Below, in pieces: positions 35,501-59,866 of a DNA stretch of 59,866 nucleotides (positions are counted from its first letter, which is position 1; the number at the start of each line of letters is the position of its first letter). The DNA is taken from the NCBI RefSeq assembly GCF_003334385.1, contig NZ_QOWN01000029.1. The stretch is one strand, 5' to 3'. Source of the DNA: Escherichia coli (GTDB taxonomy: Bacteria > Pseudomonadota > Gammaproteobacteria > Enterobacterales > Enterobacteriaceae). The position numbers and the translations under genes are program-made. The notes below the pieces were generated by a model, which saw only the letters and a program-made list of their open reading frames with translations, ran no database searches and had not been told where the DNA came from.

Positions 35501-35570
35501 TTTTTCATTAAGGAATCAGGACAGGGATGTTCTTGATGGGGTGAACCAGCTCTGATGCCAAATGCTAAAT

Positions 35571-35651
35571 TGCCCGATGCGCTGCGCTTATCGGGCCTTC
35601 ATGGTTCGTGCGACATGTAGGCCGGATAAGGCGTTCACGCCGCATCCGGCA
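35571..35651. repeat. REP / BIME-like palindromic units
   Basis: TGCCCGATGCGCTGCGCTTATCGGGCC and GTAGGCCGGATAAGGCGTTCACGCCGCATCCGGCAC between convergent hycI and ascB. Confidence 0.8.
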
Positions 35652-35658
35652 CTGTTAC

Positions 35659-38549
<2,891 letters not shown>

Positions 38550-42900: not shown

Positions 42901-42923
42901 AACGTGTTGCATTTGGACACCAT

Positions 42924-43006
<83 letters not shown>

Positions 43007-43027
43007 ATTTTAGGCACAGTAGCCCAC

Positions 43028-44161
43028 CTACATCGGCAATGTTTTCAACAATCCAAATGCCTCTTTCATCCGATCCTCACTGACCACAAAGGCGCGAAGC
43101 TGGTCAGCATCGTCAACGCCGCGCGCCACCATTCCCTGGCGTTCGGTATTAATTTGCCAGCGTAAATCCTGACGCTGGGTTTCGCCTGCCAGATGCAGCG
43201 GTAATTCCGGCGTTTTGATTTTCACCAGCATCGCCGGGAGTTTCAGCGGCGTGTTATTGCCGAGAAGATTTTTTGCCAGCACCATCGCGCTAAGTTGAAT
43301 CGGCTGGAGGAACGGCAATACCTGACCGTTAATTTCCGCGCAATCGCCCAGCGCGTAAATATCGGTATTACTGGTTTGCAGATAACTATCGACGCAAACG
43401 CCGCGATTAATCGTCAGCCCGGCGCGTCGTGCCAGGGCGGTTTCCGGGCGCAGTCCGGTGGCGGCAATTACCGCATCCACTTCGATGCTACGCTGGCGGT
43501 CCAGCGTTGCCAGAATGCCAGAATCCGTTTTTTCCAGCCCCTGCAACTGAGATTTCAACAGCAGATGAACACCCATCTCCGTCAACCGATGCTGCAAGCG
43601 GCTGCTTACTTCCGGTGGCATTAACGACGCCAGAATACTGGCAGCGTTGTCGATTAGCGTGACCGCTTTGCCTGCACGACAAAAATCCATCGCCAGTTCG
43701 CTACCAATCAAACCACCGCCAACAATCAACACGCGTCGGGCATCCCGCAGTTGCGTTTCACAGGCGCGATACTCTTGCTGACTATTTAACGTCAGCATTA
43801 ACTCACGCCCAGGCACAGGCGGGACAAAGGCGCTGGCACCGGTTGCCAGCACTAACTTGTCGTATTGCCACTGATTATTCTGGCTTTTCACCACATGGGC
43901 TTCGGCATCGATATCCGTCACCCAGGTGTGCGGAAACAGGCGCAGATTAAACTGCTCGGCAAATTCACCCGCCGTCTGGCGGGTAAGGTCGTCGGCACGT
44001 TGCCCCTGACTGATAACATGGCTGAGGTCAGGTTTGTTGTACTCATCTATGCTGTCGGCGGCAATCAAGGTTAATGGAATAGTGGCGTCCTGTTTGCGAA
44101 TATTTTTCACCAGTTGTCGGGCGGCGAAGCCCGAACCAATGATCACAATGCCGTTGCTCAT
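43028..44161 (-). CDS. norW: NADH:flavorubredoxin oxidoreductase
   Basis: 377-aa ORF with FAD motif GSGFAA, overlaps norV stop. Confidence 0.95.
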
Positions 44162-49452: not shown

Positions 49453-49486
49453 AACTTTTCCTTAATGTAGTGGCGGAAGTCCTGTA

Positions 49487-49513
49487 TGCCTGATGAGCGT
49501 AGCGCATCAGGCA
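49487..49513. repeat. REP-like palindrome (srlD-gutM intergenic)
   Basis: TGCCTGATGAGCGTAGCGCATCAGGCA, followed by a second hairpin CGGAGATCCTTAATGGATCTCCG at 49527-49549. Confidence 0.7.
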
Positions 49514-49556
49514 TTCTATAGTCTCACGGAGATCCTTAATGGATCTCCGCTGTTGA

Positions 49557-59427: not shown

Positions 59428-59520
59428 GGTGAGGTGGCCGAGAGGCTGAAGGCGCTCCCCTGCTAAGGGAGTATGCGGTCAAAAGCTGCATCCGGGGTTC
59501 GAATCCCCGCCTCACCGCCA
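59428..59520 (+). tRNA. serV: tRNA-Ser (anticodon GCU), 93 nt with long variable arm
   Basis: GGTGAGGTGGCCGAGAGG...CCCCTGCTAAGGGAG...GGTTCGAATCCCCGCCTCACCGCCA; cloverleaf with anticodon GCT and encoded CCA. Confidence 0.95.
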
Positions 59521-59523
59521 TTT

Positions 59524-59600
59524 GCATCCGTAGCTCAGCTGGATAGAGTACTCGGCTACGAACCGAGCGGTCGGAGGTTCGAATCCTCCCGGATGCACCA
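59524..59600 (+). tRNA. argV: tRNA-Arg (anticodon ACG), 77 nt
   Basis: GCATCCGTAGCTCAGCTGGATAGAGTACTCGGCTACGAACCGAGCGGTCGGAGGTTCGAATCCTCCCGGATGCACCA; anticodon ACG, encoded CCA; only 3 nt after serV. Confidence 0.95.
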
Positions 59601-59798
59601 TATTCTACGTACTTTCAGCGATGAAGGTATGGAAGAGGTGGCGGTAATAACCGCAGGCACCAGGGAGGATAACGTTGCTTTAGCAACGGCCCGAAGGGCG
59701 AGCCGCAAGGCGAGTAATCCTCCCTGATGCACCATCTCTTACTTGATACGGCTTTAGTAGCGGTATCAAAAAATCTGCAGTAAAGTAAGTTTCCCGAT

Positions 59799-59866
59799 GC
59801 ATCCGTAGCTCAGCTGGATAGAGTACTCGGCTACGAACCGAGCGGTCGGAGGTTCGAATCCTCCCG
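59799..59866 (+). tRNA. tRNA-Arg (anticodon ACG), second copy, truncated by the window edge
   Basis: Identical to argV over the 68 nt present; the window ends before the last 9 nt. Confidence 0.9.

Follow-up and report, generated by a model that had tools for sequence, protein, structure and literature searches.

Whether the palindromes that occupy the spacers between hycI and ascB, between hypF and norW and between srlD and gutM in Escherichia coli belong to the dispersed REP (palindromic unit) family, or whether they are terminators, unannotated small genes or a regulatory operator peculiar to these loci, is a question raised by the intergenic sequence itself. The window considered here (the whole stretch of 59,866 nucleotides that was analysed) is E. 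coli DNA and corresponds to the reverse complement of K-12 at ~2.82-2.88 Mb. A 601-nt query over the hycI-ascB junction is 99.8-100% identical to E. coli chromosomes in which hycI and ascB are annotated underneath, and the curated MG1655 record has the identical gene order, reversed (srlD-gutM...norW / hypF...ascB / hycI). The gene names proposed earlier from the sequence agree with the ORF map and with this record, as does the convergence of the pairs hycI/ascB and hypF/norW. The initial annotation had described all of the palindromes as lying at convergent gene ends, which is correct for these two pairs but not for srlD/gutM, whose genes are co-directional and belong to one operon (srl). The window starts inside a CRISPR array, whose E. 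coli type I-E repeat (CGGTTTATCCCCGCTGGCGCGGGGAACAC) is present five times at 98-370 on the minus strand with 61-nt spacing, and the other end of the window (59428-59866) carries three tRNA genes, the last one cut by the edge, which correspond to the serV-argV cluster of K-12. Variation at the three junctions was followed in a population survey of 5,426 genomes; L-numbers designate the individual alleles or loci that were aligned. The features discussed are collected in Table 1.

Table 1. Genes, palindromic units, linkers and other features at the three junctions, in window coordinates.
Feature	Position	Strand	Basis or description
hycI	end 35500	+	ORF list
Non-REP spacer, hycI-proximal, with accessory-island deletion scar	35501-35570	.	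Alignment to L003, L008, L007
U1, z1-class REP, degenerate tail (CCTTC for CCTAC, that is, GAAG for GTAG on the other strand)	35571-35601	+	24/27 to z1 reference
U1 hairpin	35571-35601	+	RNA fold -14.7 kcal/mol, z -3.0; head and tail motifs co-occur
Linker of hycI-ascB BIME, 14 nt, tail-to-tail	35602-35615	.	Gap between U1 and U2
U2, y-class REP, GTAG and AA-GC bulge	35616-35651	-	34/35 to y reference; hairpin -21.3 kcal/mol, z -4.8
ascB	end 35659	-	ORF list
hypF	end 42900	+	ORF list
U3, y-class REP, 23 nt past hypF stop	42924-42959	+	35/35 to published y reference; hairpin -21.3 kcal/mol, z -5.7
Linker of hypF-norW BIME-2, short S-type, tail-to-tail, ~10-12 nt	42960-42970	.	Gap between U3 and U4 tails
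U4, z2-class REP, 20 nt past norW stop	42971-43007	-	33/37 to z2 reference; hairpin -20.8 kcal/mol, z -5.0
norW	end 43028	-	ORF list
gutM	start 49452	-	ORF list
U5, lone z1-class REP, srlD-gutM, inside srl operon	49484-49514	-	27/29 to z1 reference; hairpin -17.9 kcal/mol, z -5.7
Second hairpin of srlD-gutM spacer, non-REP, perfect 9-bp stem, 5-nt loop	49527-49549	-	MFE and centroid folds of spacer
srlD	end 49557	-	ORF list

REP sequences, or palindromic units, of E. coli are known from the work of Higgins, Gilson and Bachellier, and REPs and BIMEs have been catalogued in K-12 for decades. Their published number in K-12 is 584 (PMC3333891). They are defined by a GTAG at the foot of the palindrome and an AA-GC bulge in its stem (PMC3333891, PMC8266576), and the nomenclature of the y, z1 and z2 classes used below follows Ton-Hoang et al., 2012 (PMC3333891) and Corneloup et al., 2021 (PMC8266576). 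The REP queries that Durrant et al., 2024 (PMC11208160) give in their methods served as references for the three classes; with these we scanned the window, allowing up to 3 mismatches, and used 100 dinucleotide-preserving shuffles of the window as control. The y reference was found at 42924-42958 (0 mismatches) and at 35617-35651 (1 mismatch), the z1 reference at 49484-49512 (2 mismatches), and the z2 pattern at 42971-43006, while the shuffled windows gave a mean of 0.00 matches per scan. Pairwise alignment of the remaining unit, U1 (35572-35600), with the z1 reference leaves 3-4 differing positions, among them a compensatory C:G stem pair. Similarly, all 4 differences between U4 and the z2 reference amount to two compensatory stem pairs (GTCGGAT/ATCCGAC for GCCTGAT/ATCAGGC). 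A combined consensus with a fixed 4-nt loop matched the z2 unit only. The initial annotation had called the palindromes REP-like and had made this identity depend on a match to REP families; since the y, z1 and z2 references all found their counterparts (35/35 and 34/35, 27/29 and 24/27, and 33/37, respectively, against none in the shuffles), the attempt at refutation failed and the identification stands.

Scanning the 59,866 bases of the window for the head-plus-tail motif detects five units only, none of them within a gene, and the same scan on 49 kb of K-12 (L001) returns the same units at the same junctions; the first reading of the sequence therefore missed no REP. The five units are arranged as had been described, paired at hycI-ascB and at hypF-norW and single at srlD-gutM, and their positions had been given correctly to within 1-3 nt at the ends, the second pair extending to 43007 and the third locus consisting of 49484-49514. 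All five are extragenic, lying between the stop or start codons of the flanking ORFs. Inverted repeats were located at 35571-35651 (arms 35621-35634/35637-35650, 35587-35603/35614-35630 and 35571-35581/35641-35651), at 42924-43007 (four arm pairs, nested or adjacent) and at 49486-49514 (13-nt arms, 92% complementary, with a 3-nt loop). Each unit folds as a single hairpin with one internal mismatch, the energies ranging from -14.7 to -21.3 kcal/mol and the z-scores from -3.0 to -5.7. When whole spacers are folded, the z-scores are -5.9 and -4.7 for the two strands of hypF-norW and -5.9 for srlD-gutM; folding of the hycI-ascB spacer is unexceptional in comparison with shuffles (z -1.3 on the hycI strand and -2.4 on the other). 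The units are also dispersed: three queries containing them match a median of at least 37, at least 29 and at least 40 places per E. coli genome, and U5 in sensitive mode matches 19-47 places per genome.

Taken with the established E. coli REP classes as yardstick, the units share their length (29-37 nt), their sequence, the imperfect palindrome with AA-GC bulge, the extragenic location and the high copy number. U2, U3 and U4 carry GTAG at the palindrome foot and show no difference from these classes, whereas U1 has GAAG and U5 has GTAT. The GATAAG...CGCATC geometry, with its two-base AA-GC mismatch, is present in U1-U4; U5 has only one of these mismatches left, half of its bulge having been repaired. 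The same two loci carry canonical forms in other strains, and U1 and U5 are thus, judged from sequence comparison, true REPs that are slightly decayed in the K-12-like lineage. The U5 locus matches the z1 reference at 29/29 positions, GTAG tail included, in L018 and L019, and the U1 locus has the GTAG/CCTAC tail in L017. Compared with L018, L019 and L020, two substitutions in the window and the K-12 lineage have removed from U5 both the GTAG and the CT core used by IS621 (see below), closed half of the bulge and made the hairpin more stable. No result speaks against the REP identity, and we estimate the probability at roughly 93% that U1-U5 all belong to the E. coli REP family, organised as a y+z2 BIME-2, an atypical BIME and a lone z1 unit. 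Finding REPs and BIMEs at these junctions is correct, already known and ordinary, in a well-annotated region of E. coli; note that the MG1655 RefSeq feature table has no repeat_region rows for this stretch.

The pair at hypF-norW is one BIME-2 repeat, consisting of a y and a z2 unit that are inversely oriented, their tails facing each other across a linker of ~11 nt. It resembles BIME-2 in its short linker and in the existence of tandem-extended alleles at this locus in other E. coli, but the window holds a single y-z2 repeat, and gyrase binding, a property associated with such elements, is here a prediction only. The pair at hycI-ascB, a z1-like and a y unit placed tail-to-tail around 14 nt, is an atypical BIME. 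With BIME-1 (and RIP/RIB) it shares the single-copy combination of a z1-class and a y-class unit, but BIME-1 is defined by z1 and y units around a long conserved L linker, usually with an IHF site (PMC3333891), and a linker of 14 nt (0 nt in some strains) has no room for an L motif or an IHF site. BIME-1 was ruled out for this pair because the linker is far too short.

Rho-independent terminators likewise take the form of GC-rich stem-loops at operon 3′ ends, and the palindromes could in principle be locus-specific, bidirectional intrinsic terminators that look REP-like by chance: they form strong GC-rich hairpins, lie between convergent gene ends, and are accompanied by no other terminator-like site in the spacers. 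A terminator scan of the three spacers returned no terminator-like site at all; it does not call the stems because no U-tract follows any of them on either strand. Moreover, the units match the dispersed y, z1 and z2 references at 83-100%, where zero matches are expected by chance, and recur dozens of times per genome, as members of a dispersed repeat family. We consider chance likeness to REPs highly improbable; terminator-like activity is possible as a function of REPs, not as a separate identity.

It is similarly improbable that the spacers, palindromes included, conceal small protein genes or small RNAs. Short ORFs do run over the repeats (35555-35620, 21 aa; 35562-35801, 79 aa; 42904-43083, 59 aa), and many REPs are reported as transcribed (PMC4550694), but the curated MG1655 record annotates no gene in the spacers and no Rfam match reaches the gathering threshold there. 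A search of the whole window with Rfam 15 at this threshold yielded only three tRNAs (59428-59866) and nothing at the junctions; REPs evidently match no Rfam family at the gathering threshold, so this result speaks neither for nor against the REP identity. The ORFs furthermore cross units whose linker is inverted or deleted, or which are interrupted by an IS, in other strains, which rules them out as conserved coding sequences. Genuine coding material is limited to a 32-nt relic of a deleted gene for a 251-aa protein.

Two earlier statements about the spacers have to be qualified, namely that the repeats explain most of the intergenic sequence and that they argue against hidden small genes. 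REPs cover 84 of the 127 nt between hypF and norW (66%), for which the first statement clearly holds, but only 81 of the 158 nt between hycI and ascB (51%) and 31 of the 104 nt between srlD and gutM (30%). For the sequence as it is now, the second statement is supported by the MG1655 record, by Rfam and by the behaviour of the short ORFs; the 70 nt preceding the hycI-ascB BIME are, on the other hand, the remnant of a real 251-aa gene and of an island with higB and HTH genes. Many E. coli carry here an accessory island composed of a hypothetical gene of 251 aa followed by a higB toxin and an HTH antitoxin gene (L003, L004, L007, L008), and positions 35524-35555 are the last ~32 nt, TGA included, of the 251-aa gene present in other strains. 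The deletion endpoints are two copies of GGGATGT, one at the start codon and one near the end of the 251-aa gene, and there are also intermediate alleles, from which just higB/HTH or just a part of the 251-aa gene is missing. The island separates hycI from the BIME in approximately half of the genomes, whereas 2767 of the 5426 genomes have the window-type spacer.

Least probable among the alternatives is that the srlD-gutM palindrome is instead an operator site for GutM or SrlR, regulators of the sorbitol operon. The palindrome is nearly perfect (13-nt arms, 92% complementary), lies just upstream of gutM and is fixed in 5406/5426 genomes, but nothing links it to a regulator. U5 is 27/29 to the z1 reference and 29/29, GTAG tail included, in other alleles; its sequence finds 19-47 matches in each genome, and in L021 it has served IS621 as a REP target. 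The operator role was dropped, other alleles being the exact z1 consensus.

The junctions were compared across genomes for the number of their units, as the initial annotation had suggested. Over the 5,426 genomes they show the usual REP variation, with zero, one or more BIME copies, inversion or loss of linkers and insertion of IS621 or IS3-family elements. At hypF-norW the copy number is 0, 1 or a tandem: the one-BIME window type covers at least 80% of the query in ~3058 genomes, and tandem-extended alleles of 221-225 nt (L009, L010, L013) have in addition a second, partly decayed y unit and another z2 unit. The two variants of the segment diagnostic of these alleles were detected in 812 and 1057 genomes, and a single genome can hold as many as 3 copies. 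L012, a divergent E. coli, has zero BIME and a 77-nt spacer (L012:525-601). A different GC hairpin, CCCCTCGCCC TTTG GGCGAGGG, is present in this spacer; it may be a terminator or belong to another small repeat family. The srlD-gutM junction is essentially fixed.

At hycI-ascB the variation concerns the linker. The window-type linker allele is found in 2845 genomes. In L005 and L014-L017 the 12-nt centre of the linker is inverted (GGTTCGTGCGAC, window 35602-35615, as against GTCGCACGAACT, L017:360-475), which changes the z1 tail from CCTTC to the canonical CCTAC, and this flipped allele is intact in 447 genomes; L003 and L008 have a linker-less allele. In L008 (1576-1660), an IS3-family element is located in the y-unit loop of this BIME, between GGCGTTCAC and TGAACTGCACCCC. 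It is reminiscent of IS1397, described as inserting specifically into palindromic units (PMC1525189).

The srlD-gutM spacer holds a second, non-REP hairpin (Table 1), which had been missed when its repeats were first listed. In the RNA it starts 6-7 nt past the srlD stop codon and is not followed by a U-tract; it is single-copy per genome and its stem is kept in divergent alleles. Together with U5, 42 nt downstream of the srlD stop, this hairpin could set the ratio of srlAEBD to gutM-srlR-gutQ expression.

The REP tails at all three junctions have served as landing sites for IS621, an IS110-family element with a bridge-RNA recombinase. IS621 (1279 bp) is inserted in the U1 tail between ATCGGGCCT and AC, equivalent to window position 35598/35599, in L005 (206-1484), L014, L015 and L016, these insertions having three different flank backgrounds. 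It is found in the y tail of hypF-norW between ATCCGGCCT and AC in L011 (296-420), and in the z1 tail of srlD-gutM immediately after ATCAGGCCT in L021 (200-400), where, being within the srl operon, it would probably be polar on gutM-srlR-gutQ. The published donor core (ACAGTATCT/TGTAT) is recognisable at the insertion junctions, and the target reconstructed for hycI-ascB, ATCGGGCCTAC, is exactly the target-loop sequence of the wild-type IS621 bridge RNA (specificity and donor core from PMC11208160 and the bridge-RNA supplement). The window shares with IS621 targets the three junctions at which the element is inserted in other genomes, but its U1 tail (ATCGGGCCTTC) and its U5 tail (ATCAGGCATAC) both deviate, U5 lacking the CT core, and the window itself contains no IS621.

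Inversion of the linker centre at hycI-ascB converts the window-type ATCGGGCCTTC to ATCGGGCCTAC. Among genomes with the flipped allele, ~196 of 643 have a match that starts at the CT core, as expected from an insertion there, and IS621 was confirmed in 4/4 such alleles examined, namely L005, which was the source of the flipped-linker query, and H139, H141 and H142 (L014-L016, respectively); among the 2845 genomes carrying the window-type linker, no split match of this kind was seen. Every IS621-occupied hycI-ascB allele that was examined had the flipped linker. At srlD-gutM, the CT core that IS621 uses in strain SCU-301 is abolished in K-12-type sequences by a C-to-A change. We tentatively propose, at somewhat less than even odds, that the state of the REP tail decides whether IS621 can land at these junctions in nature, so that small rearrangements of REPs would act as on/off switches of, or immunisation against, a bridge-RNA recombinase. 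The apparent dependence of IS621 occupancy on linker orientation and tail sequence, seen in raw genome counts, is the only mildly novel thread of this analysis.

By analogy with REPs studied elsewhere, the units may owe their origin and their rearrangement to TnpA-REP (RAYT), a single-strand Y1 transposase that requires GTAG and the stem bulge (PMC3333891, PMC8266576). From these two features U2-U4 are predicted still to be substrates of TnpA-REP in this strain, and U1 and U5 no longer to be so; without GTAG, the latter two may be inert relics here. Because the three spacers contain no intrinsic terminator, the hyc, asc, hyp and nor transcripts would carry the repeats at their 3′ ends, and the srl mRNA would presumably contain U5 as an internal structure. 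Protection of the upstream mRNA is the classical role of REPs, and the stable stem-loops described here may likewise block 3′-to-5′ exonucleases and stabilise the upstream message. On the ascB transcript, the 5′ end of U2 is only 7 nt past the stop codon; REPs within 15 nt of a stop codon are reported to stall ribosomes and lower translation (Liang et al., 2015, as cited in PMC12306157), and this y unit might similarly stall terminating ribosomes and dampen ascB translation. Gyrase prefers the y units of BIME-2 (PMC6379681), which makes the y unit of the hypF-norW BIME-2 a likely DNA gyrase site between convergent operons; the text of the published gyrase Topo-seq supplement mentions neither hypF nor norW, and the RepRanger and bridge-RNA supplements do not list the genes of the three junctions. 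Any local function of these repeats is dispensable, as L012 lacks the hypF-norW BIME and the island parts hycI from its BIME in about half of the genomes.

The three intergenic stretches are thus settled as REP/BIME sequences and not as unannotated genes, and the remainder of the hycI-ascB spacer is identified as a scar left by an island deletion. Nothing here is new in kind. The by-product is a natural data set at three loci, comprising expansion of a BIME-2, inversion of a linker and site-exact insertion of IS621 and of an IS3-family element, which could illustrate the target specificity of bridge RNAs at the population level.
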